This document shows, in pieces, positions 19,246 through 31,811 of a DNA stretch of 32,000 nt; positions within the stretch are counted from its first letter, which is position 1, and the number at the start of each line of letters is the position of its first letter. The position numbers and the translations under genes were made by a program. The stretch is taken from assembly GCF_000709555.1 (NCBI RefSeq), contig NZ_CP006873.1:150001-182000 (forward strand), given 5' to 3'. Source of the stretch: Candidatus Saccharimonadota bacterium. GTDB lineage: Bacteria > Bacteroidota > Bacteroidia > Flavobacteriales > Blattabacteriaceae. The notes beneath the pieces were generated by a model. That model was not told the DNA's origin and made no database searches. It was given only the letters and a program-made list of their open reading frames with translations.

Positions 19246-19318
19246 AGCGGAAGACGGGACTTGAACCCGCGACCTTCAGCTTGGAAGGCTGACGCTCTAC
19301 CAACTAAGCTACTTCCGC
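19246..19318 (-). tRNA. trnG: tRNA-Gly (anticodon TCC)
   Basis: Hand-folded. Acceptor gcggaag/cttccgc, anticodon stem tcagc/gctga with loop ctTCCaa, T arm gcggg-ttcaagt-cccgt. Confidence 0.92.
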
Positions 19319-19571: not shown

Positions 19572-19614
19572 TTATCAGAACCTATACAGTAAAGATAATA
19601 TATAAAAAAAAAAT

Positions 19615-20691
19615 CTAAACTTTAAGATCAGCTATATCAGCTATTTTCAGAGCATTGATCATTTCTTGAATATGTCCATTCATAAACTCATCAAGAGAAT
19701 AAATTGATTTGTTGATACGATGATCTGTCACTCTTCCCTGAGGGTAATTGTAGGTCCGAATTTTAGCCGATCGATCTCCAGTAGAGACTAATGATTTTCT
19801 TTCATTGGCTCGTTCTTGAGTATTCTTTTTTAATTCGGTTTGATATATACGTGCACGAAGTACATTTAAAGCTTTTTCATAATTCTTATGTTGATAACGT
19901 TCTTCTTGACATTCTACTACTATTCCTGTTGGAATATGTGTTAACCGAACTGCTGATTCAGTTTTATTCACGTGTTGTCCTCCTGCTCCGCTAGATCGAA
20001 ATGTTTCTCTTTTAATATCATCCGAGTTAATATTTACATTAAGAGCGTCCACTTCAGGTAAAACCGCAACTGTAATAGCTGAAGTGTGGACTCTCCCTTG
20101 AGATTCAGTTTCAGGAATTCGTTGCACACGATGTATTCCAGATTCAAATTTTAAAATCCCATATACTTTTTCTCCTTGGACATCTAGGATAATTTCTTTA
20201 TAACCATGACCAGTTGATTCTTGTGCGTTTAAAATCTTATATTTCCAATTTCTCTCTTTAAAGTACATGGTGTACATTCGTAAAATATTTTTCACAAATA
20301 GACAAGCCTCATCACCTCCAGTTCCTGCACGTAACTCAACAATAGCATTTTTATCATCTTCAGAATCTTTAGAATCTACTAAAGATTGAATTTTATTTTC
20401 TATTTGTTCTAAATCTATCAAAAGTTGATTTTTTTCTTCTTGTGCCATTTTTTTTATTGAAATACATTCATTAGCATCACAAAGGATTTTTTCATTTTCG
20501 TGTAAAGATTTAGATTTAGATTTATAGTCGTGATAGATTTGTATAATCTTTTCCAGATTTTTATATTTTTTTGAAAGAGATACAAAACGTTGTTTATTTG
20601 CAATAATATTAGGTTGAATAATAAGATCATAAATATCGTAAAATTCTTGCTCTAGTTTATCAAGCTTTTCCATTAGAAACCTTTTTTTCAT
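19615..20691 (-). CDS. prfA: peptide chain release factor 1
   Basis: 358-aa ORF with the GGQ motif ([11 protein letters not shown]). Has [17 protein letters not shown] with P-E-T at the RF1 PxT position (RF2 would have SPF). Confidence 0.93.
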
Positions 20692-20924
20692 ATTTTACTG
20701 TTTTATAAATGTTTGACTGAACTTTACTATCACTAATGAATTACAAGAAATAAATGACGAAATATATCTAAAGATAGAGAAAAAGGACATAAAACTGATA
20801 TGCACTATAAAGAACAAATTTAGAATGAAAATAGGTTGTCACGATTTCATAAAAACCATTGGAATACTCAGTATAACACAAAACGTCCAATTTATATGAG
20901 GAAAAATAAAACCAAATAGACATT

Positions 20925-22103
20925 ATGCCTTTGGAAAACAAATATCGTTATCGTTATCGTTATCGTTATCGTGCAGCAAATTATGAATTTGAAGGAATTG
21001 TGGCTAGTGAAGGAGTTCTTGAAATTATGCAAGAAAATTATGGATTTCTAAGATATTCAGATTTTAATTATCTCTCGTCTCCAGACGATGTTTATGTTTC
21101 TCAATCGCAAATTAAACTTTTCAGTCTTAAAACAGGTGATACAATCAGTGGAGCAATTAGGCCACCTAAAGAAAGTGAAAAATATTTTCCTATGATTAAA
21201 ATAATTAAAATTAACGGGAGATCTCCTTATGACATACGTGAGAGATCTTCTTTTGAACATATGACACCTTTATTTACAGAAGAAAAATTGAATTTGTCTG
21301 ATAAGAACCCTACTGTTTCTACGAGAATTTTAGATATTTTTGCTCCAATCGGAAAGGGACAACGTGGGATGATTGGAGCCCCTCCTAAAGTTGGAAAAAC
21401 TATATTATTGAAAGATCTAGCTAATGCTATAGCAGCAAATCATCCTGAAGTCTATTTAATGATCTTATTAATCGATGAACGTCCTGAAGAGGTGACTGAT
21501 ATGCAACGTAGTGTAAAAGGTGAGGTAGTAGCCTCAACTTTTGATGAATCAGAAGAAAGACATGTTAAAGTAGCAAATATTGTTCTACAAAAGGCAAAAC
21601 GAATGGTGGAATGTAATCACGATGTAGTGATATTGCTAGATTCTATAACTCGTTTAGCAAGAGCGTATAATACTGGAGCTCCGGCTTCAGGAAAAGTCCT
21701 TTCAGGAGGAGTAGAAGCTAATGCTTTGCATAAACCTAAGAGATTTCTTGGTGCTGCTAGAAATATCGAAGGCGTAGGCTCTCTTTCTATTATAGCTACA
21801 GCTATGATAGAAACTGGGTCAAAAATGGACGAAGTTATCTTTGAAGAGTTTAAGGGTACAGGGAATATGGAATTACAACTTGATAGAAAAATAGCTAATA
21901 GAAAATTATATCCTGCTATAGATCTAGTTGCTTCAAGCACCCGGAGGGATGATTTATTATTGAACGATCCTACATTGCAGAGAATGTGGATTTTGCGAAA
22001 ACATATTTCAGAGATGAATCCTATAGAAGCTATGGAATTTTTGATAAAACGAATTAACCAAACTCAAAGTAACGACGAATTCCTTATTTCGATGAATAAG
22101 TGA
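20925..22103 (+). CDS. rho: transcription termination factor Rho (N-terminally short form)
   Basis: 392-aa ORF. OB/CSD-like RNA-binding region [14 protein letters not shown]...[23 protein letters not shown], Walker [10 protein letters not shown], and [10 protein letters not shown]. The ~47-residue N-terminal helical bundle seen in E. coli Rho is absent from the ORF. The frame is closed by a TAA at 20907-20909. Confidence 0.9.
20943..20972 (+). repeat. (TATCGT)5 hexanucleotide repeat encoding (YR)5 in rho codons 7-16
   Basis: Five perfect tatcgt units in frame with rho. Confidence 0.97.
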
Positions 22104-22137
22104 TTTAAAAATATAAGTTTCTACACATTTTTTTATT

Positions 22138-23547
22138 ATGTTCTCTTTCAAATTCAAAAGCTTTAAGAAAAAAATTAGAGCAGATATTACTACTCCTATT
22201 AAGCTTTATATGCAATTAAGAGATCATTTTACAAAGACATTACTTTTAGAATGTGCAGATTCTCCCCAAAAACAAATTTCCATTATTTGCCTACAATCTG
22301 TAGCAGAGATTATTGTATGTGATAGATATATATATAAACGTTATCCAGATTATACTTCCGACCAAATAAAATTAAAAAATCGTCTAAGTCTAAGTCTAAA
22401 TGCTTCTCCATTTTTAGCCCCTTTTTTTTCCCAATTTATAGTAGAACCAAGTTTTTCACCTTATTCAGGTTTGTACGGTTATATAACTTACGATAGTATT
22501 CCTTTTTTTGAAAATATCATTTTTACCTCCCCTTCTTTTGAAGAGGATCAAGTACCCAAAATTCGTTTAGGTTTTTTTAAGAATCTTATAGTTTTCGATC
22601 ATTTTCATAATAAACTTATTGTTATAGAACATCGATTCTTTGAAAAGGAAGATTCCCAAATGGAAACAATTTTGAATATTATTCATCAGAGTAGATTTAG
22701 AAATTTTCCTTTTAACAGAATAGGTAATTCTGTATCAAATATGACTGATTATCAATATCGGGATTTGGTGTCCAAAGGTATAAAAGCATGCGTGTTGGGA
22801 CAAGTGTTTCAAATTGTACTTTCACGACAATATAGTCAAAAATTCAAAGGAGATGAATTCAATGTATATAGAACCTTGCGTTCTATTAATCCTTCGCCTT
22901 ATTTATTTTATTTCGATTATGGAAATTATAAAATATTCGGGTCTTCTCCTGAATCTCAAATAGTTATTAGTAATAATACAGCTTCTATTTATCCAATAGC
23001 TGGAACTATGCATCGTTCTGGAGATTATACAACTGACAAAAATGCAGCTGAAATCTTAGCAAAAAGTCCGAAGGAAAATTCAGAACATGTTATGTTAGTA
23101 GATTTAGCTCGTAATGATCTCAGCAAGACTTCTGAAGAAGTAAAAGTGAATCGTTATAAAGAAATACAATACTTTTCGCATGTTATGCATCTGATTTCAC
23201 AAGTTTCAGGAAAATTAAAATCTGGAATTTCTTCTATCAAAGTCTTTGGAGAAAGTTTTCCTTCCGGAACTTTATCTGGTGCTCCAAAGTATAAAGCTAT
23301 GGAACTAATAGACCATTTTGAAAATCAATCACGTGGGATCTATGGAGGAGCAATAGGTTTTTTTGGTCTTAACGGTGAAGTGAATACAGCTATTATTATT
23401 CGTTCCTTTCTAAGTAAAAATAATATGCTATTTCTGCAAGCAGGAGCAGGAATTATAGCAGATTCTAAAGAAGAAAATGAACTCCAAGAAGTAAATAATA
23501 AACTTGAAGCACTAAAACAAGCTATTTTATGTGCGGAAAATATTTAA
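22138..23547 (+). CDS. trpE: anthranilate synthase component I
   Basis: 469-aa ORF with the chorismate-binding domain: SPSPYLFYFD, PIAGTMHR, GGAIGFFGLNGEVNTAIIIRS. Confidence 0.95.
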   Translation: MFSFKFKSFKKKIRADITTPIKLYMQLRDHFTKTLLLECADSPQKQISIICLQSVAEIIVCDRYIYKRYPDYTSDQIKLKNRLSLSLNASPFLAPFFSQFIVEPSFSPYSGLYGYITYDSIPFFENIIFTSPSFEEDQVPKIRLGFFKNLIVFDHFHNKLIVIEHRFFEKEDSQMETILNIIHQSRFRNFPFNRIGNSVSNMTDYQYRDLVSKGIKACVLGQVFQIVLSRQYSQKFKGDEFNVYRTLRSINPSPYLFYFDYGNYKIFGSSPESQIVISNNTASIYPIAGTMHRSGDYTTDKNAAEILAKSPKENSEHVMLVDLARNDLSKTSEEVKVNRYKEIQYFSHVMHLISQVSGKLKSGISSIKVFGESFPSGTLSGAPKYKAMELIDHFENQSRGIYGGAIGFFGLNGEVNTAIIIRSFLSKNNMLFLQAGAGIIADSKEENELQEVNNKLEALKQAILCAENI

Positions 23548-23550
23548 TAA

Positions 23551-24129
23551 ATGGGTATAATAAAAATATTAGTCCTTGATAATTACGATTCTTTTACCTA
23601 CAATTTAGTGTCTTTGATTAAAGAAATTACAAATAGTCCTGTCTCCGTTTTTAGAAATGATTCTATTCCCTTAGAAGAAGTTGATAATTACGATAAAATA
23701 CTCTTGTCGCCAGGACCAGGAATTCCAGAGGAATCTAATATTCTCAACCCTTTGATCCAGAATTATGCCCCGACAAAAAGTTTATTCGGAATTTGTTTAG
23801 GTCTGCAAGCTATCGCAGAGGTTTTTGGAGGAGAATTACTTAACACAAAAAAAGTATATCATGGAATTACCAGTAAGGTCAAAATAATTGATTCTACGGA
23901 ACAAATTTTCAAAGGCTTGCCTGATATTATTGAAGTAGGCCGTTATCATTCATGGATTGTTTCGGCCCAACAATTTCCTAAAGAATTAAAAATTACGGCA
24001 AGAGGACCCAAATGGGAAATCATGGCTATACGTCATAAAAAGTATGATGTAGTAGGTGTTCAATTTCATCCTGAATCTATATTAACTCCTTATGGAAAAA
24101 AAATAGTGTATAACTGGTTACATGTCTAA
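23551..24129 (+). CDS. trpG: anthranilate synthase component II (glutamine amidotransferase)
   Basis: 192-aa ORF with class I GATase catalytic Cys in FGICLGLQA and His in VQFHPES. Confidence 0.95.
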   Translation: MGIIKILVLDNYDSFTYNLVSLIKEITNSPVSVFRNDSIPLEEVDNYDKILLSPGPGIPEESNILNPLIQNYAPTKSLFGICLGLQAIAEVFGGELLNTKKVYHGITSKVKIIDSTEQIFKGLPDIIEVGRYHSWIVSAQQFPKELKITARGPKWEIMAIRHKKYDVVGVQFHPESILTPYGKKIVYNWLHV

Positions 24130-25123
24130 TGTAAAAATTCCGGATATACTAAACTATCTTTTTGAAGAGAAAATTCTTAATCAGCAAGAGGCAAAATCTC
24201 TCATGATTAATATAGCAAATAATAAATTCACTCCTGCTCAAATATCAGCATTAGTAAGTATTTATAACATGAGAACTCCTAAATTGGAGGAAATAAAAGG
24301 CTTTTATGAAGCATTGCTTGACTTTCATCTTCATCTAAATTTTAATACAGTTGATGCAATAGATCTTTCTGGAACCGGAGGAGATGGGAAAAATACTTTT
24401 AACATTTCCACTTTAGCTGCTTTTATAGTGGCTGGTTCCGGTGGAAAAGTCATAAAACATAGTAATTATAGCGCAACGTCTATTACTGGATCTTCCAATT
24501 TGCTAGAATCATTGGGATACAAGTTTACTAATGAAGAAGGACGCTTACAAAAAGAATTGGAAAAATCTGGAATATGTTTCTTACATGCTCCACTATTCCA
24601 TCCAGTTATGAAAAACGTCTACTGGGTAAGAAGAGAAATAGGGATAATGACTTTCTTCAATATTCTAGGACCTTTGTTAAACCCTAGTGAACCACACTAT
24701 CAACTATTGGGAGCAAATAATCTAGAAATCGCAAGATTATACTATTATTTTTTTAAAAATGAAAAAAAAAATTATGCGATTATTCATAGTCTAGATGGGT
24801 ATGATGAGATTTCATTGACTAGTCCATTTAAATGTTACGATTCAAAAGGTGAATCTATTTATACTCCACAAGAATTAGGTCGATTAAAACTTCTTCCTAA
24901 AACTATTACAGGAGGTCAAAATCCAGAAGAAAATAAACGTATATTCGTTAGGATCCTTTCTGGAGAAGGAAGTAAAAGCCAAAATGAAGTAGTATTGACA
25001 AATGCGGCATTCTCTTTATGTTTACTGAATAACAAAGATTTTAAAAGTAATTATCTGATAGCAAAAGAAAGTTTAGAAAGTCAAAAGGCTAAAAAAGTGT
25101 TAGAAACATTATTAAACATTTAA
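24122..25123 (+). CDS. trpD: anthranilate phosphoribosyltransferase
   Basis: 333-aa ORF with the GTGGDGKNTFNISTLAAFIVAG motif. Overlaps trpG by 8 nt and trpC by 1 nt (TAATG). Confidence 0.93.
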   Translation: MSNVKIPDILNYLFEEKILNQQEAKSLMINIANNKFTPAQISALVSIYNMRTPKLEEIKGFYEALLDFHLHLNFNTVDAIDLSGTGGDGKNTFNISTLAAFIVAGSGGKVIKHSNYSATSITGSSNLLESLGYKFTNEEGRLQKELEKSGICFLHAPLFHPVMKNVYWVRREIGIMTFFNILGPLLNPSEPHYQLLGANNLEIARLYYYFFKNEKKNYAIIHSLDGYDEISLTSPFKCYDSKGESIYTPQELGRLKLLPKTITGGQNPEENKRIFVRILSGEGSKSQNEVVLTNAAFSLCLLNNKDFKSNYLIAKESLESQKAKKVLETLLNI

Positions 25124-25910
25124 TGAACATTTTAGAACAAATTATTACTATAAAACATAAGGAAGTTTCCAGAAATAGGCATCTTGTTACTATAAAAACC
25201 CTGGAAAAAAGTCCTTATTTAGAAAGAAATTGTCATTATTTATCTAATAATTTAAAAAAAAAACATCCCAATATTATTGCAGAGTTCAAGCGGAAATCTC
25301 CTTATAAGGGGATTATTAATAATCGGGTTTCTGTAAAAGAAGTAGTGAAAGCTTACGAAAATGCGGTAGCTTCTGGAATATCTATATTAACAGATTCTTT
25401 TTTTTTTCTGGTAAAAATGAAGATATTACAGAGGCTAGAGAAATCGTTTCTTTACCTCTCTTGTGTAAAGATTTTATAATTGACGAATATCAAATTATTG
25501 CTGCGAAATCGCTTGGAACAGATATCATTTTACTAATTGCTGAGGTACTCTCCAAAGAGAAAATACAGTCTTTGACCCATGTCGCTAAAATACTAGGTTT
25601 AGAAGTACTTCTGGAAATGCATTCTGAAAACGAATTATACAAAATTAATGAATATATCGATATTATAGGAATCAATAATAGAAATCTTAGCACTTTTTTT
25701 GTCGATATACAACGTTCTGTCGAATTATTTAAAATAATACCTAATAATTTTATAACAATCTCAGAAAGTGGTCTATCTGATCCTATTAAAGTGAGTTTTT
25801 TAACCCAAATGGGCTTTGCCGGCTTCCTTATTGGTGAAATATTTATGCGTTCTTCTCATCCTGGAAAACAAATGGAAGAGTATATTAAACAAGTTAACCT
25901 AAAGACATAA
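25123..25910 (+). pseudogene. trpC: indole-3-glycerol-phosphate synthase interrupted by a -1 frameshift in a T10 run
   Basis: Two tracked ORFs (25123-25479 and 25461-25910) together cover one IGPS. The N-terminal part has IIAEFKRKSPYKGII...ISILTDSFFF. After the T10 run (25398-25407), the next frame reads [43 protein letters not shown]...ISESG...GFLIGE. Confidence 0.9.
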
Positions 25911-25916
25911 CAGATC

Positions 25917-26537
25917 ATGTTTAAAATTAAAGTTTGTGGGTTGAAAGATCCTAGTAATATAATGGAAATTTTTATTCTGAAACCTGATTTTCTAGGATTT
26001 ATTTTTTACCCTTTCTCTCCTCGATTTATAAAAAAATATTTTCCAATTCCCAATTTCTGCGAAGTAAAAAAAATCGGGGTCTTTGTCAATTCAGATGAAA
26101 AATACGTTTTACAAAAAATTGAAAATTATAGATTAGATTTAATTCAACTTCATGGAAATGAAGATGTGAAATTTTGTTATAGTTTATACAGTTTAGACAA
26201 AAAAAATATTAAAATTATTAAAGCGTTTAATGTAGATCAAAATTTTTCTTTTGACCAAATTAAAAAATATAGGAATTGTGTTGATTATTTTCTTTTTGAT
26301 ACAAAAACCTCAAAATATGGAGGCAGTGGTAAAAAATTTTTCTGGAAGAAACTTGATGAATATTATTTTGATATTCCCTTTTTTCTAAGTGGAGGTATTA
26401 CTATAAATGATACTGATGAAATTCTGAAACTTTCACATCCGAAATTATTTTGTCTAGATATTAATAGTCATTTTGAAATTACTCCTGGGTTCAAAAATAG
26501 GAATTTAATTAGTAATTTTATAACAAAAATACGTTGA
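25917..26537 (+). CDS. trpF: phosphoribosylanthranilate isomerase
   Basis: 206-aa ORF. Has FKIKVCGL at the N-terminus, LIQLHGNED and FLSGGI. Lies in operon position between trpC and trpB. Confidence 0.88.
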   Translation: MFKIKVCGLKDPSNIMEIFILKPDFLGFIFYPFSPRFIKKYFPIPNFCEVKKIGVFVNSDEKYVLQKIENYRLDLIQLHGNEDVKFCYSLYSLDKKNIKIIKAFNVDQNFSFDQIKKYRNCVDYFLFDTKTSKYGGSGKKFFWKKLDEYYFDIPFFLSGGITINDTDEILKLSHPKLFCLDINSHFEITPGFKNRNLISNFITKIR

Positions 26538-27727
26538 TGAATTCTTATTTAGATGATAAGAATGGATTTTATGGCGATTTTGGAGGTACATTTATTCCCG
26601 AAATTTTATGGATTAATTTCAAAGAATTAAAAGACTCTTATGAAAGTATAATTTTGGACCCTAGTTTTAACAAAAAATTTGAATCATTGCTTAATAACTA
26701 TGTAGGACGTCCTACTCCTTTATTTTATTGTAATGAACTTTCTAAAAAATATAAAACTAATATTTATTTAAAACGTGAAGATCTTAATCATACTGGATCA
26801 CATAAAATTAATAACACAATCGGACAAGCTTTATTTGCAAAACAACTTGGTAAAAAAAAAATTATTGCTGAAACCGGGGCCGGACAACACGGAATTGCTA
26901 CAGCTACTGTTTGTTCTCTTCTTTCTTTAGAATGTATTATTTTTATGGGTGAAACTGATATTTTACGACAAGCAATTAATGTATCTAAAATGAAAATGTT
27001 AGGAGCTAAAATTATTCCTGCTACTACTGGAAATAAAACTCTTAAAGATGCGATTAATGAAGCTTTACGTTATTGGATAAATCATCCTGAATGTTATTAT
27101 TTAATAGGATCAGTAGTAGGACCACATCCATATCCAAAAATCGTCGCTTATTTTCAATCTATTATAAGTAAAGAAATTAAAAAACAATTACAAGAAAAGA
27201 AAGGAATAACACAACCTAATTATATTATTACTTGTATCGGAGGAGGTAGTAATTCAATAGGTGCTTTTTATCATTTTTTAGAGAATGCATCAGTAAAATT
27301 AATTGCTGTGGAATCAGCAGGATTAGGAATATATACTAATAAAACAGCAGCTACTACTATTCAAGGATCAAAAGGGGTTATCCATGGAAGTCTTACTTTT
27401 GTTATGCAAGATAAATATGGCCAAATTATAGATCCTTATTCAATATCTGCTGGAATGGATTATCCAGGAATAGGTCCCATGCACGCTAATTTATTTCATA
27501 CACAACGTGTAAAATTTTTTAATGTTACTGATAATGATGTGTTACAAGCAGCTTATGAAATAAGCCAAATTGAAGGAATAATACCAGCGTTAGAAAGTGC
27601 TCATGCTTTAGCTATTTTGCCTAAAATTTCTTTTAAAAAAGAAGATATAGTAGTAATTAATCTTTCAGGGAGAGGAGATAAAGATCTAAAAAATTATATT
27701 AGACATTTAAATCAATTTTTAAAATAA
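26537..27727 (+). CDS. trpB: tryptophan synthase beta chain
   Basis: Contains the PLP-lysine motif HTGSHKINN and GGGSNSIG. The ATG at 26537 overlaps the trpF TGA (TGATG). The track alternatively starts at the TTG at 26534. Confidence 0.96.
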   Translation: MNSYLDDKNGFYGDFGGTFIPEILWINFKELKDSYESIILDPSFNKKFESLLNNYVGRPTPLFYCNELSKKYKTNIYLKREDLNHTGSHKINNTIGQALFAKQLGKKKIIAETGAGQHGIATATVCSLLSLECIIFMGETDILRQAINVSKMKMLGAKIIPATTGNKTLKDAINEALRYWINHPECYYLIGSVVGPHPYPKIVAYFQSIISKEIKKQLQEKKGITQPNYIITCIGGGSNSIGAFYHFLENASVKLIAVESAGLGIYTNKTAATTIQGSKGVIHGSLTFVMQDKYGQIIDPYSISAGMDYPGIGPMHANLFHTQRVKFFNVTDNDVLQAAYEISQIEGIIPALESAHALAILPKISFKKEDIVVINLSGRGDKDLKNYIRHLNQFLK

Positions 27728-27736
27728 TGAATAATA

Positions 27737-28504
27737 ATGAATATTATAGATCATCTCTTTAAGAAAGGAAAAAACAAATTAAGTATTTATTTTACAGCTG
27801 GTTATCCCAAATTAAATAGTACTAAAAAAATTATTCAAATTTTACAACAATCTAAAGTCAATCTGATTGAAATTGGGTTGCCTTATTCAGATCCTATGGC
27901 AGATGGTTTAATCATTCAAAAAAGTAATAAAAAAGCTCTTAAAAATGGAATGAATCCTGATCAATTATTTTCTCAACTCCAATTAATACAAAATGAAATT
28001 CAAGTTCCATTAATCTTAATGGGGTATTATAATCAATTTTTGAAATTTGGAGAAGAATCTTTTTTAAATTGTTGTAAAAAATCAGGAATATCAGGTCTGA
28101 TTTTTCCGGATTTACCTCTAGAAATTTATAAAGAAAAATATCAAAAGTTATTTGAGAAATATGAATTATATTTTATTTGTTTAGTAACGTCACAAACTCC
28201 AGATAACCGAATTCTTTTGCTTAGTAATATTAGCAAAGGATTTTTATATGTAGTTTCTTCAATATCTACTACAGGTCAAAACAAAGACTTTGAAACAGAT
28301 CCCCTGATTTTTTTAAATAGGATTAATAATTTGAATTTATCTATTCCTACCCTAGTTGGTTTCGGTATCGCCAACAAGAATTCATTTAATTTGGCTTGTC
28401 AATATGCTAACGGAGGGATTATAGGAAGCGCATTTATACAATCTCTAGATGAGAATGACCTCGAAGGAAGTATTCATCGTTTCATAGCATCTATTTTGTA
28501 TTAA
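27737..28504 (+). CDS. trpA: tryptophan synthase alpha chain
   Basis: 255-aa ORF with IEIGLPYSDPMADGLIIQ and VGFGI motifs. Last gene of the trp operon. Confidence 0.93.
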   Translation: MNIIDHLFKKGKNKLSIYFTAGYPKLNSTKKIIQILQQSKVNLIEIGLPYSDPMADGLIIQKSNKKALKNGMNPDQLFSQLQLIQNEIQVPLILMGYYNQFLKFGEESFLNCCKKSGISGLIFPDLPLEIYKEKYQKLFEKYELYFICLVTSQTPDNRILLLSNISKGFLYVVSSISTTGQNKDFETDPLIFLNRINNLNLSIPTLVGFGIANKNSFNLACQYANGGIIGSAFIQSLDENDLEGSIHRFIASILY

Positions 28505-28535: not shown

Positions 28536-29426
28536 TTAAACCTGACCTAATCCCATAAACAATGCGTATAAAAAAGTAATTATAGCCATGTTTTTAATCT
28601 CTTTATCGAAATTTGTCCTCGAAAATACTTTCTTTATGTTAAAGAAAATTGGAAATAATAAAATTAAAAAGGCCCATCTATAAAATTGGGTCTGCTTATT
28701 TAGCATTACAAAAAAACTTCCTAATACAAAAGGAGTTAAAACTAGGAAAATATGATATAGTTTGGCTATCTGAAGTCCTATTTTCACTACAAAAGTATAT
28801 TTACCATTTTGTCTATCTCCATTTATGTCTCTCATATTATTAAGATTAAGTACTGATGTACTTAAAAGACCTATGGATATAGCCAATAAAAATATATCCC
28901 ATTCAACCCGATGAGTATATAAAAAATAGCTTCCTAGAACAGAGGTTAGTCCAAAGAATAAAAATACAGATACATCCCCCATTCCCTTGTAACCATAAGC
29001 ATTTTTTCCAACTGTGTATTTAATAGATGCATATAAACAAGTAAATATCCCTATGATAAAAAATATAGGAGCAATTCCTTTATAATTTTTAAACGAAATC
29101 CAAATTAATATTGTAGAAGAAATCAGATAGACGATTGTTATAAATCCGATAGCTTTTTTCATGCATTCTCTTGAAATATAGCCAGACGATATCACCCGGG
29201 GTGGACCCATCCGAAAAAAACTATCAGTTCCTTTCACAGCATCTCCGTAATCATTAGAAAAATTAGCTAAAATCTGTAGAAGCAAAGAAGTTATACAAGA
29301 CATAAAAAATATCCCGACATCATAATGATCTCTGGAGTACGCTATAAGAGCAGACAGTAAAATTCCTGATAAAGCAATAGGTAAAGTATGTACACGAGCA
29401 GCATCAACCCAAAATTTAATATACAA
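28536..29426 (-). CDS. menA: 1,4-dihydroxy-2-naphthoate polyprenyltransferase
   Basis: 296-aa polytopic membrane ORF with the UbiA-family Asp-rich motif NDYGDAVKGTD. Adjacent to menB. Confidence 0.88.
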   Translation of the reverse strand: MYIKFWVDAARVHTLPIALSGILLSALIAYSRDHYDVGIFFMSCITSLLLQILANFSNDYGDAVKGTDSFFRMGPPRVISSGYISRECMKKAIGFITIVYLISSTILIWISFKNYKGIAPIFFIIGIFTCLYASIKYTVGKNAYGYKGMGDVSVFLFFGLTSVLGSYFLYTHRVEWDIFLLAISIGLLSTSVLNLNNMRDINGDRQNGKYTFVVKIGLQIAKLYHIFLVLTPFVLGSFFVMLNKQTQFYRWAFLILLFPIFFNIKKVFSRTNFDKEIKNMAIITFLYALFMGLGQV

Positions 29427-29462
29427 TGTGGAGAATATTTTTTATAGAGAACATTCGTGCTG

Positions 29463-29511
29463 TTTTTAATTTTGAATTTTGAATTTTTAATTTTGAATTT
29501 TTAATTTTGAA
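29463..29511. repeat. 14-bp tandem repeat (tttttaattttgaa), 3.5 copies, in the menB-menA spacer
   Basis: Full units at 29463-29476, 29484-29497 and 29498-29511, plus a 7-bp half unit ttttgaa at 29477-29483. Confidence 0.93.
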
Positions 29512-29545
29512 TCCAAGGAAAGACAATTCATTTTCTGAATTCTTC

Positions 29546-30343
29546 CTAACGTTTTTCAAGAAAAGCTTTCTTCCCTTCTTGAGATTCCTCTGTTAAATAA
29601 TACATTAACGTTGCGTCGCCAGCTAGCTGCATTATACCGTGTTGACCGTCTAGTTCTGCATTTAGACAACGTTTAATCATTCTCAAAGCCATGGGACTGT
29701 GCTGTTGAATAATTTTACACCATTCCATAGTAGCCTCTTCAAGATCTTCTTGAGGGACTACTTTATTAACTAGTCCCATATCTAGAGCTTCCTTTGCACT
29801 GTATTGCTGGCATAGAAACCAAATTTCTCTTGATTTTTTTTGTCCTACATGACGAGCTAAATAAGAGGATCCAAATCCTCCATCAAAAGAACCGATTTTT
29901 GGACCAGTTTGTCCAAAACGGGCATTTTCTGAGGCAATAGTAAGATCACAAACTACATGAAGTACATGTCCCCCTCCTATTGCATAACCGTTAACCATAG
30001 CTATAACAGGTTTAGGGAGTTCTCGGATTTTCTTATGTAGATCTAAGACATTAAGACGGGGTACTCCGTCTTCTCCAATGTATCCTCCAATCCCCTTTAC
30101 TCTTTGATCTCCCCCACTACAAAAAGCTTTTTTCCCTGCACCTGTCAGAATGACTACGTCAATAGTCGAACACTCACGAACTATATCCATAGATTGAATC
30201 ATTTCATCAATAGTTTCTGGACGAAAAGCATTATGAACTTCTGTCCGATTTATAGTAATTTTAGCAACTCCTTTGCACACTTCAAAGGTTATGTCTTTAT
30301 ACTTGCAAAGAGACTTCCAAACTATGGTTGACATGGATAACAA
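29546..30343 (-). CDS. menB: 1,4-dihydroxy-2-naphthoyl-CoA synthase
   Basis: 265-aa crotonase-fold ORF containing [33 protein letters not shown] and [16 protein letters not shown]. It ends at a TAG a few codons earlier than typical MenB. Confidence 0.94.
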
Positions 30344-31558
30344 AATTTAACCCTTGGTTCTTCATGCTTACTTTTTCTTCTAATAACTTATCCAGTTCTT
30401 TTATAGATAGACGTTCTTGTTTCATAGTATCTCTGTATCGTACTGTCAAAGTGTTCGTCCTCAAACTTTCATAGTCTATTGTGAAACAGAATGGGGTTCC
30501 AATAGCATCTTGACGACGATAACGTTTCCCTATAGATTCTTTATCTTCATAAACTAGAGAATATTTCCATTTCAATTCATCAAAAATTTTTTAAGCTAAT
30601 TCTGGTAACCCATCTTTTTTTTTGTTTGTTTTGTTGTTTTTTTTTAGCAAGGGTAATATAGCTGCCTTGATAGGAGAAATTGGTTCTGGTAATTTTAACA
30701 CGAAACGGGAAGTTCCATCTTACAAAATTTCTTTGTGAAGAGAAGAAGAAAATATTACAAGAAACAACCGATCAAGACCTAATGAAGTTTCTATTACATA
30801 CGGAATGTAACTTTTATTTTTTTCTGCATCAAATCAAAATCAGTACGTGAATGAATACCTTCAATTTCTCTAAATCCAAAAGGAAAACGAAATTCTATAT
30901 CAGCATAATGTGCTAATTTAGTATGCTTACTCACACGATAGTTCTCCGATGATAATCCTAGCCATCGGATTTCCTTCCAATATTCATACCATTTTATTTC
31001 CTCGCCTACTCAAGTTCTCGCGCATTCTAAAAATAAATTGTCTAGCTATAATTTCATTACGAAAAACTTTCGTGTACTTTTTTGCACAGTCATAAAATTT
31101 ACAAAAACCCCCTGAGCTGTTTCAGGCCGTAAATAAAGTGTAGTAGATTCTTTTGGTGGTTTGAAACATCAAGTTAAATTTCCGTACATCTGTCCAATTT
31201 TTTTAGATCATATAAATTATTTGCTTCCATCGCATGGACTATACGTTCTGATATTTTCTTTTTTAAAATTTGTTGCAATTTTTCACAATAATCTTCTAGG
31301 AGAACATCTACACGATAACGATATCCACTATCTTTATTTTCAATTAAAAGATCATTAAAAGACTCCACATGTCCTGAAGATTTCCAAGTGATGCCTCCGA
31401 ATGGAGATTTACCACCAATAATCTTTCAGATTGTTCTTAAGAGCTACTCCATATGGCCCGTAATCGTATATGGCACTTAATCCATCATAAATATGACTTG
31501 AAGGAAAAATAAAACCATAAGATTTTGCGTGAGAAACGACAAGTTTTAGGAGACTGAC
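30297..31558 (-). pseudogene. glyS: glycyl-tRNA synthetase (alpha2 GlyQS type), multiply disrupted
   Basis: GlyRS-like segments appear in order but in changing frames. They include [155 protein letters not shown] and IGKRYRRQDAIGTPFCFTIDY. There are in-frame TAAs at 31409-31411, 30720-30722 and 30591-30593. No start codon is present. Confidence 0.9.
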
Positions 31559-31637
31559 TTTTATTTTTCTATGTTACCCTCCCTTAATATCATATTTCCT
31601 GAGATATTCTTCAATAGTATTATTGTTAATAGCTTTC

Positions 31638-31811
31638 TTATTTTTTCGAACGCTGCTTTAATATCTCCTGGAATTTTTTTTTATTATATTTAGTAGATAA
31701 TTCAGCATATCCATTAGGGATCAGATAGTTTCTAGCGAACCCAGGCTTTACAACTATTTCTTCATATTTCAACCCAAGATTATCTATATCTTTTTTTAGG
31801 ATAATTCGCAT
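31638..31811 (-). CDS. rplI: 50S ribosomal protein L9, truncated to the N-terminal domain (possible pseudogene)
   Basis: Manual translation from the ATG at 31811 gives MRIILKKDIDNLGLKYEEIVVKPGFARNYLIPNGYAELSTKYNKKKFQEILKQRSKK* (57 aa, below the track cutoff). This matches the L9 N-terminal domain and the start of the linker helix. The C-terminal domain is absent. Starts 12 nt after the rpsR stop. Confidence 0.7.
   Translation of the reverse strand: MRIILKKDIDNLGLKYEEIVVKPGFARNYLIPNGYAELSTKYNKKKFQEILKQRSKK

Follow-up and report, generated by a model that had tools for sequence, protein, structure and literature searches.

A shattered glycyl-tRNA synthetase locus in Candidatus Walczuchella monophlebidarum LLAX and the fate of its orthologues in related symbionts

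The window analysed here, a stretch of 32,000 nucleotides (nt) from contig NZ_CP006873.1 (positions 150,001 to 182,000), belongs to the genome of Candidatus Walczuchella monophlebidarum LLAX, an endosymbiont of the scale insect Llaveia axin axin: its proteins, among them LysRS, L1, L11, L7/L12, EF-Tu, RF1, Rho, TrpE, TrpG, TrpD, MenA and MenB, are identical to GenBank AID37431-AID37455 and to RefSeq proteins of the 309,299-bp chromosome. All coordinates given below are window positions. A remnant of glyQS, the gene for the class II alpha2 form of glycyl-tRNA synthetase (GlyRS), occupies 30322..31548 on the minus strand and was delimited by tblastn and by DNA alignments to intact orthologues. 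It sits between rplI and the trp operon in a conserved gene order (rpsF-rpsR-rplI-glyQS-...-trpA). On the same strand it is preceded by a truncated rplI open reading frame (ORF; 31638..31811) and by a stretch holding the eroded C-terminal part of rplI and its junction to glyQS (31549..31637), and it is followed by an intact menB (29546..30334), whose start overlaps the native glyQS 3′ end. The original prediction, made from the letters of the window, was that a GlyQS-type GlyRS gene lies shattered on this strand, and both three-frame translation and tblastn bear this out. We put the probability that the locus is a genuine, multiply disabled GlyQS-type GlyRS pseudogene of a flavobacterial endosymbiont at roughly 0.9, judging from sequence.

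The minus strand of 30297-31600 was translated in three frames and searched by tblastn with an intact orthologue of 479 amino acids (P0003). Eight collinear GlyRS segments in alternating frames were recovered, corresponding to codons 7-52 (frame -2), 76-137 (frame -3), 151-166 (frame -1), 170-196 (frame -2), 210-225 (frame -1), 236-305 (frame -2), 319-468 (frame -1) and 474-479 (frame -3), and their summed E value of 5e-167 means that the similarity to GlyRS is not a matter of chance. The remnant extends from GlyRS codon 7 to the native stop codon, a TAG at 30322-30324, and measures 1227 nt, compared with 1422 nt for codons 7-480 in intact orthologues. Its kept blocks retain about 97–99% DNA identity to those orthologues. 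A stitched LLAX translation is 75-76% identical to intact Walczuchella GlyRS over the full length and 85-92% identical inside the high-scoring segment pairs, with GlyRS of free-living Flavobacteriia next closest at about 48-52%, and a contig search with this pseudo-protein returned matches only to the Walczuchella of Icerya purchasi and to free-living Flavobacteriia.

Mapping of the frameshifts and deletions against related GlyRS, which the original prediction had suggested, was done by tblastn and by DNA alignment to the intact glyQS genes of ICPU, ICSE and CRGE. The resulting catalogue comprises about 16 internal deletions of 2-45 nt each (about 234 nt in total, nine of them frame-shifting) and three insertions, of which one is in frame and 9 nt long, one is an A-rich slippage product of 24 nt and the third is a +10/-8 rearrangement at the 3′ end. 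The frame switches seven times and is interrupted by three in-frame TAA codons. Conserved stretches of the catalytic core have been deleted, among them the 11 codons directly upstream of motif 2, and so have conserved stretches near the N-terminal end. At the 5′ end, a deletion of about 66 nt, with TCTCC microhomology at 31549-31553, has taken out the last part of rplI, the intergenic spacer and the glyQS ATG together with codons 1-6, so that the ribosomal protein L9 sequence ‘..HRKIKVSL’ is now fused to the GlyRS sequence ‘LLKLVV..’ (codon 7). The frame upstream of ..KVSLLKLVV reads TAA-CAT-AGA-AAA-ATA-AAA and lacks an ATG, exactly as first described, and no GTG or TTG is found at the remnant 5′ end either; the letters HRKIKVSL preceding LLKLVV do not belong to GlyRS and are in fact the C-terminus of L9.

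Further into the gene, a cluster of four deletions (10+10+19+5 nt; 31390..31415) has left 22 nt in place of the 66 nt that encode 22 codons (KAMVNIHKNIVGIDTSILMHPT) between WW and TWK, so that the earlier estimate of about 17 codons replaced by 10 nt needs correction; the same cluster creates the in-frame TAA at 31409-31411 that had been reported after DYWW. The 9-nt in-frame insertion AAATTTTAA follows at 31262..31270, and the junction of a 2-nt and a 45-nt deletion, absent from the earlier list of lesions, lies at 31203..31210, where ..KLIDELGISDAKSGS.. has been lost. A TAA at 31174-31176, previously counted as a further stop, is present but lies outside the native frame, which reads KFNLMF. 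At 31150..31153, a 5-nt deletion (GGCTC) accompanied by three substitutions causes the frame switch preceding ESTTLYLRPETAQG, a 34-nt deletion (junction 31070..31071) has removed MKIPFGIAQIG directly upstream of the motif-2 sequence FRNEIIARQF, and deletions of 4+16+6 nt at 31008..31018 have removed FEQMEMQFFVAP. Alignment further places three in-frame deletions of 6, 9 and 12 nt at about 30966, 30961 and 30904, respectively (30904..30966), and a 43-nt deletion with 5-nt microhomology (junction 30833..30834) has removed LKNHQYFSGKKIQY. Of the frame changes that had been described, each with a loss of roughly 10-20 residues, the one before LYLRPETAQG involves only the 5-nt deletion. Towards the 3′ end, the TAA codons at 30720-30722 (EIL*DG; GlyRS codon 356, G-to-T) and 30591-30593 (ELA*KIF; codon 391, GAA-to-TAA) were both found as predicted, and an A-rich run at 30615..30645, which corresponds to A7 in intact genes, carries the in-frame slippage insertion of 24 nt (KKNNKTNKKK).

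On its sequence, the remnant must be regarded as unable to encode GlyRS, lacking a start codon and combining core deletions with the seven frame switches and three TAA codons. The catalytic domain PF00587 (tRNA-synt_2b), which scores 51.4 bits in intact P0003, was not detected at E≤1 even in the best-case stitched LLAX translation. The anticodon-binding domain PF03129 (HGTP) scores 69 bits in that translation, which speaks to homology and not to function, and the domain is broken by the TAA at 30591-30593 and preceded by that at 30720-30722. The longest ORF at the locus, of 92 amino acids (30297..30575, minus strand), covers part of the anticodon-binding domain and is on record only as a UniParc/MetaClust entry; a functional enzyme of this class would need a single ORF of about 476-515 codons. 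It had been described as the last 92 codons of the gene and the only ORF left to it, and its extent holds, but its final 24 residues are out of frame after the +10/-8 nt rearrangement at 30343-30359, beyond which lies the native TAG. An Rfam scan returned only the five tRNAs of the window, none of them within the pseudogene on either strand, and plus-strand ORFs over the region are short.

Orthologous loci were compared from ICPU (two independent assemblies; L001/L002/L005), CRGE (L003, L004) and ICSE (L086), and, for the Drosicha group, from DRPI (L087, CP170567), DRCO (L088, CP170568), L085 (Logan SRR27234917) and L093 (ENA ERZ15609813). Six Walczuchella genomes besides LLAX were described by Choi et al. 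2025, who distinguished two clades, Drosicha+Llaveia and Crypticerya+Icerya (PMC12188211). The distribution of intact and shattered genes follows this division. glyQS is intact, with 476-479 amino acids, at the syntenic site in ICPU (both assemblies), ICSE and CRGE, and CRMU, whose intact GlyRS of 479 amino acids is known from protein P0002 alone, counts as a fourth intact genome of the Icerya/Crypticerya clade. By contrast, the gene is shattered in five out of five sampled lineages of the Drosicha+Llaveia clade, in the four other than LLAX by deletions that differ from those of LLAX. The 9-nt insertion at 31262..31270 likewise occurs in all five of these lineages and is absent from the Icerya/Crypticerya clade. 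Taken together, these alignments indicate that, throughout the Drosicha+Llaveia clade, selection had ceased to maintain glyQS or had become much weaker. The genomes are otherwise close, with DNA differences of only about 2-4.5% among all Walczuchella; over the flanking trp operon, LLAX differs by 2.2% from L085 and by 4.0-4.5% from the other clade.

Could the gene nevertheless be functional, intact or redundant in LLAX? For certain Walczuchella genes that contain long poly(A/T) tracts, trpC among them, rescue by slippage has been suggested (PMC12188211), and the trpC frameshift in this window does lie in a T10 run, but none of the seven frame switches in glyQS falls at a long homopolymer, the start codon and about 234 nt of conserved core are gone, the catalytic domain is undetectable and the anticodon-binding domain is missing its first strand in the ORF past the last stop. 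Given the number of lesions, a gene kept functional by transcriptional slippage, programmed frameshifting or as a split enzyme is not credible. An intact true gene, with lesions introduced by the 2014 Velvet/Phrap assembly, has hardly more to recommend it. LLAX is represented by a single assembly, no independent Llaveia data having been found, its private substitutions in flanking sequence include transitions and A>T changes that are near-absent on other branches and could hint at assembly noise, and the ratio of indels to substitutions in its glyQS is unusually high. Against this, about 20 indels of 2-45 nt are packed into 1.3 kb of a window in which rpoB, rpoC, tuf, lysS and most of the trp operon are intact, the reported coverage is 1571x (PMC3971599), and the lesions are not single-base homopolymer miscalls, since no catalogued deletion is of a single base. 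We regard an assembly artefact as ruled out because four other lineages, independently assembled by other groups with other pipelines, have a shattered orthologue of their own, with deletions unlike those of LLAX. Several observations do weigh against a loss of GlyRS made good from outside: the synthetases given as missing from LLAX in 2014 were those for Met, Asn, Ala and Asp only, so that GlyRS is not among them (PMC3971599); our LLAX evidence covers only the 32,000-nt window; the import of a replacement enzyme is pure inference; and the LLAX remnant shows no higher rate of private substitutions than its flanks, which would be surprising had the gene already died before LLAX parted from the Drosicha group. 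The first two would also suit a LLAX genome with an intact GlyRS at another site, be it a further glyQS or a glyQ/glyS pair. The relatives that keep GlyRS carry glyQS at this same locus, and the best 120 of 8000 GlyRS matches include no Walczuchella protein from the 309,299-, 297,114- or 295,965-bp chromosomes, although this is a weak test. Duplicated housekeeping genes are, to our knowledge, essentially unheard of in 300-kb symbiont genomes. With seven Walczuchella genomes reported as completely syntenic and collinear (PMC12188211), and with glyQS at one position in the relatives compared, a second GlyRS is very unlikely.

When the gene was inactivated is less clear-cut. The view that inactivation was evolutionarily recent had been drawn from the ease with which the fragments are recognised, which is weak evidence because Walczuchella genomes are all very similar in DNA; it finds better support in the few substitutions private to LLAX and in the lack of any frameshifting indel in common with the sister lineages, and is opposed by two nonsense codons that LLAX has in common with two of them. 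The four Drosicha-group copies have many deletions in common among themselves and none with LLAX, the in-frame 9-nt insertion being the sole indel found in all five lineages. Codons 356 and 391 (alignment columns 1245 and 1374) are both full TAA codons in LLAX and L085 and both GAA in DRPI and DRCO; L093 has T at both sites, but in this lineage codon 356 is TCA, and codon 391, where the nonsense mutation is probably the same, lies directly next to a deletion. As shared indels place DRPI and DRCO as the closest relatives of L085, this pattern calls for reversion at both sites or for parallel hits on several occasions, an indication of strong mutational hot spots. Under strict filtering, 3-4 clean private substitutions remain over ~730 sites of the LLAX remnant (~0.5%), compared with 0.79% in flanking genes, whereas substitutions on the Drosicha stem amount to 2.2% in the remnant and 1.02% in the flanks, and those on the DRPI+DRCO branch to 0.8% and 0.15%. 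A 2- to 5-fold excess of substitutions, of the kind that relaxed selection would be expected to leave, is seen in the Drosicha-group copies (13 nonsynonymous and 4 synonymous changes), and the LLAX branch shows no excess over its flanks. A figure of ~3% private substitutions in the LLAX remnant was dropped, being inflated by misaligned columns next to indels (~0.5-1% after strict filtering), and with it the proposal of neutral evolution along the whole LLAX branch.

Two accounts of these data were weighed, and we give even odds to the one in which the two GAA-to-TAA mutations put glyQS out of action a single time, in the ancestor shared by the Drosicha+Llaveia clade, the indels accumulating independently afterwards. 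Because the two nonsense codons are common to LLAX and two sister lineages, inactivation may predate the split of Llaveia and Drosicha: LLAX, L085 and L093 all have T as the first base of codons 356 and 391, a single origin needs 4 events as opposed to 6 for parallel gains on the tree implied by shared indels, the gene is dead in every one of the five clade members and the clade-wide 9-nt insertion marks their common ancestry. The GAA codons of DRPI and DRCO would nevertheless demand two exact reversions on a short branch, and there is no surplus of private substitutions in LLAX; homoplasy is also frequent, as about 20 site patterns conflict within 8.5 kb of flanking sequence, and the substitution spectrum is dominated by G<->T changes, both of which weaken the case for a single origin. 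It is also plausible, if short of an even chance, that the clade ancestor already experienced relaxed selection on glyQS and the adjoining L9 C-terminal domain (a replacement enzyme might, for instance, have been in place by then) and that glyQS was only afterwards disabled, independently and later in LLAX than in the Drosicha group. The absence of a common frameshifting indel, despite about 17 deletions in each, and the very few private substitutions of LLAX fit such a late, independent inactivation, as do the different lesions by which rplI has been eroded in LLAX and in the Drosicha group and the contrast in private rates between the remnants (~0.5% in LLAX, 2.2% on the Drosicha stem) at similar flanking rates (0.79% and 1.02%). 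Identical nonsense mutations at two codons would then have had to arise in two or three lineages, the counts are small, and the distinct substitution spectrum of the LLAX branch complicates the comparison of rates. Under either timing, the alignments indicate that all indel erosion of the LLAX copy postdates its split from the Drosicha group.

The decay of glyQS followed what appears to be the usual route of the lineage, namely many small deletions with little or no flanking microhomology, together with slippage insertions in simple runs and G-to-T nonsense changes. Mean microhomology at deletion ends is 1.4 nt in LLAX (P = 0.02) and 1.7 nt in L085 (P = 0.001), compared with an expected 0.77 nt, and most deletions have 0-2 nt. 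Slippage between direct repeats was considered as a general cause of the deletions and rejected; with microhomology only weakly enriched, it would account for some events at most. Deletions are about as frequent as substitutions overall and several times commoner in the LLAX glyQS. The adjoining menA and menB genes support this as the usual route of gene erosion in the genus: they are intact only in LLAX (window 28536-30334) among LLAX and six relatives, and in those six (L002, L003, L085, L086, L087 and L093) 18-32 deletions, most of them 2-50 nt long, have shrunk their 1.8 kb to 0.8-1.3 kb.

Some details of the dead copies were recorded alongside. In DRPI and DRCO, an 18-nt tandem TATCGT expansion lies inside the dead glyQS (alignment columns 433-450), a second slippage insertion like the 24-nt A-rich one of LLAX. 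Five of the 17 deletions in the L085 copy measure exactly 19 nt (columns 322-340, 388-406, 562-580, 616-634 and 1011-1029); four of these are aligned as common with DRPI/DRCO, in which the gap at the fifth is 14 nt long. A mutational signature of 19-nt deletions was considered and set aside as a local curiosity, none of that exact size occurring in the menA/menB remnants.

Substitutions among Walczuchella are almost exclusively A:T<->C:G transversions, as seen when window 19600-28500 was compared with L085, L002, L003 and L086, and also with L087, L088 and L093. Changes private to L085 comprise 56 A>C and 18 C>A out of 80, and such transversions account for 53/53 changes in ICSE and 158/198 on the branch separating the clades. 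Transitions are near-absent; the exception is the LLAX branch, with transitions or A>T making up 30 of its 76 changes. In sequence terms, the spectrum resembles the 8-oxoguanine signature of mutT/mutY/mutM deficiency. No such transversion or 8-oxoguanine signature is mentioned in Choi et al. 2025 (PMC12188211). As the two independent ICPU assemblies encode an identical GlyRS, a sequencing-platform artefact is argued against. Both glyQS nonsense mutations and the rplI nonsense mutation are G-to-T changes, and those in glyQS match the transversion-dominated spectrum of the lineage.

The neighbouring genes had been taken to be intact, which is true of menB (Pfam ECH_1; WP_038436173) and most of the trp operon and untrue of rplI and trpC. 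The rplI ORF, annotated in RefSeq as ‘bL9 family’ (WP_081823214), encodes 57 amino acids and matches only the N-terminal L9 domain (Pfam Ribosomal_L9_N). Alignment attributes its end to a GAA-to-TAA change at codon 58, and deletions add to the reduction; the eroded part at 31549..31637 was traced by alignment to the intact rplI-glyQS loci of ICPU, CRGE and ICSE and to the Drosicha-group loci. rplI in the Icerya/Crypticerya clade encodes 153 amino acids with both L9 domains. In all five Drosicha+Llaveia-clade lineages it is cut to 57-67 amino acids (59-67 in the Drosicha group), by lesions that differ between LLAX and the Drosicha group.

Elsewhere in the window, trpC (25123-25910) is split into ORFs of 118 and 149 amino acids by a frameshift at the T10 run at 25398-25407. 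The ICPU assembly OZ034981 has a comparable split (118+151), and trpC of CRGE is intact at 264 amino acids. TrpE (22138-23547) has 469 amino acids in LLAX as opposed to 427-430 in all other Walczuchella, and L085 carries a separate ORF of 42 amino acids directly upstream of TrpE; from these sequences, the N-terminal ~40 TrpE codons seem to have been lost or split off in the relatives.

The cognate tRNA-Gly(UCC) is retained (19246..19318, minus strand), as seen from the Rfam scan and from comparison with relatives. Its acceptor stem (G1-C72/C2-G71/G3-C70), anticodon and U73 are identical in LLAX, DRPI, DRCO and L093, all without GlyRS, and in ICSE, which has one. These positions form the bacterial tRNA-Gly identity set; eukaryotic GlyRS prefers A73, and the bacterial enzymes U73. 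Because acceptor stem, anticodon and U73 are invariant, tRNA-Gly appears to be still under constraint, with nothing to suggest retuning to another synthetase, and because it is kept under constraint, Gly-tRNA would still be needed. We infer that glycylation probably depends on an imported GlyRS. By analogy with proposals for other insect symbionts poor in aminoacyl-tRNA synthetases, a host enzyme would be the most likely source, and an enzyme of a co-symbiont a less likely one; the co-symbionts recorded in the literature are Sodalis TME1 in Llaveia and Cedecea-like bacteria, housed in separate host cells, in Drosicha. A broader proposal, which we advance only tentatively, is that the Drosicha+Llaveia clade could do without its own GlyRS from its base onwards and that the gene was then destroyed independently in each lineage along with the L9 C-terminal domain, the acceptor stem, anticodon and U73 of tRNA-Gly remaining unchanged, and that the hosts had evolved delivery of a GlyRS that charges bacterial-type tRNA-Gly before the symbiont gene died. 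If true, this would provide a clean natural experiment on protein import into a Bacteroidota symbiont, with intact sisters of about 95% DNA identity.

The phenomenon as such is already known. Both the loss of aminoacyl-tRNA synthetases from tiny symbiont genomes and accelerated pseudogenization in Walczuchella have been described, and the general picture is therefore unchanged. The LLAX chromosome was published as 309,299 bp with 27 pseudogenes and a complete set of ribosomal proteins (Rosas-Perez et al. 2014, PMC3971599), and the seven Walczuchella genomes are reported to carry 27-84 pseudogenes each, through truncation or fragmentation, to have lost dnaB, dnaG and most repair genes and to show ‘significant decay in many aminoacyl-tRNA synthetases’ (PMC12188211). 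glyQS or GlyRS is not named in the main texts of these two papers (PMC3971599, PMC12188211), and nothing specific on the Walczuchella GlyRS was found in a paper on minimal translation machinery or in a 2025 Bacteroidota preprint. The comparison of eight Walczuchella loci adds a clade-wide loss of glyQS, caught in mid-decay and with intact orthologues in the sister clade, and GlyRS and the truncated L9 join the essential translation genes lost from the published LLAX genome. The locus is a convenient system in which to ask who charges the tRNA-Gly of the symbiont, and how fast and by which mutations a dead gene erodes without DnaB, DnaG and most repair. We regard the comparative set, namely the lineage-specific shattering of glyQS and rplI, the reciprocal state of menA/menB and the conserved tRNA-Gly, as groundwork and not as a new kind of biology.

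Several known systems offer points of comparison. Nearest at hand, the menA/menB remnants of other Walczuchella adjoin the locus and decay in the same mode as the LLAX glyQS, with reciprocal patterns, menA/menB being intact only in LLAX and glyQS only in the Icerya/Crypticerya clade. In Buchnera, genes reportedly erode gradually, by many small deletions and not by one large excision, as Silva, Latorre and Moya in 2001 and Gomez-Valero et al. in 2004 are said to have described. The locus resembles this disintegration of genes in a recombination-poor endosymbiont, but differs in a much higher ratio of deletions to substitutions, with ~17 deletions and a handful of substitutions in LLAX and a ratio of roughly 1:1 in the Drosicha group, and in substitutions that are almost all A:T<->C:G transversions. 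Published accounts of synthetase loss and pseudogene richness in Walczuchella concern the same organism and, for LLAX, the same genome as the glyQS remnant; they differ from ours in that GlyRS was not counted as missing and the ribosomal set was called complete in 2014, whereas rplI is truncated here. Among other insect symbionts, 15 aminoacyl-tRNA synthetase genes have been lost in Sulcia, 17 in Nasuia and all in Tremblaya, with tRNAs kept, and leafhopper bacteriocytes over-express host mitochondrial-type synthetase genes that have been proposed as gap-fillers (Mao et al. 2018, PMC6294904). Like Walczuchella, these are obligate bacteriome symbionts that keep tRNAs while losing the synthetase genes. 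The genes lost from Sulcia, Nasuia and Tremblaya have usually gone without trace, whereas glyQS of Walczuchella has been caught mid-decay, alongside intact sister orthologues of ~97% DNA identity.

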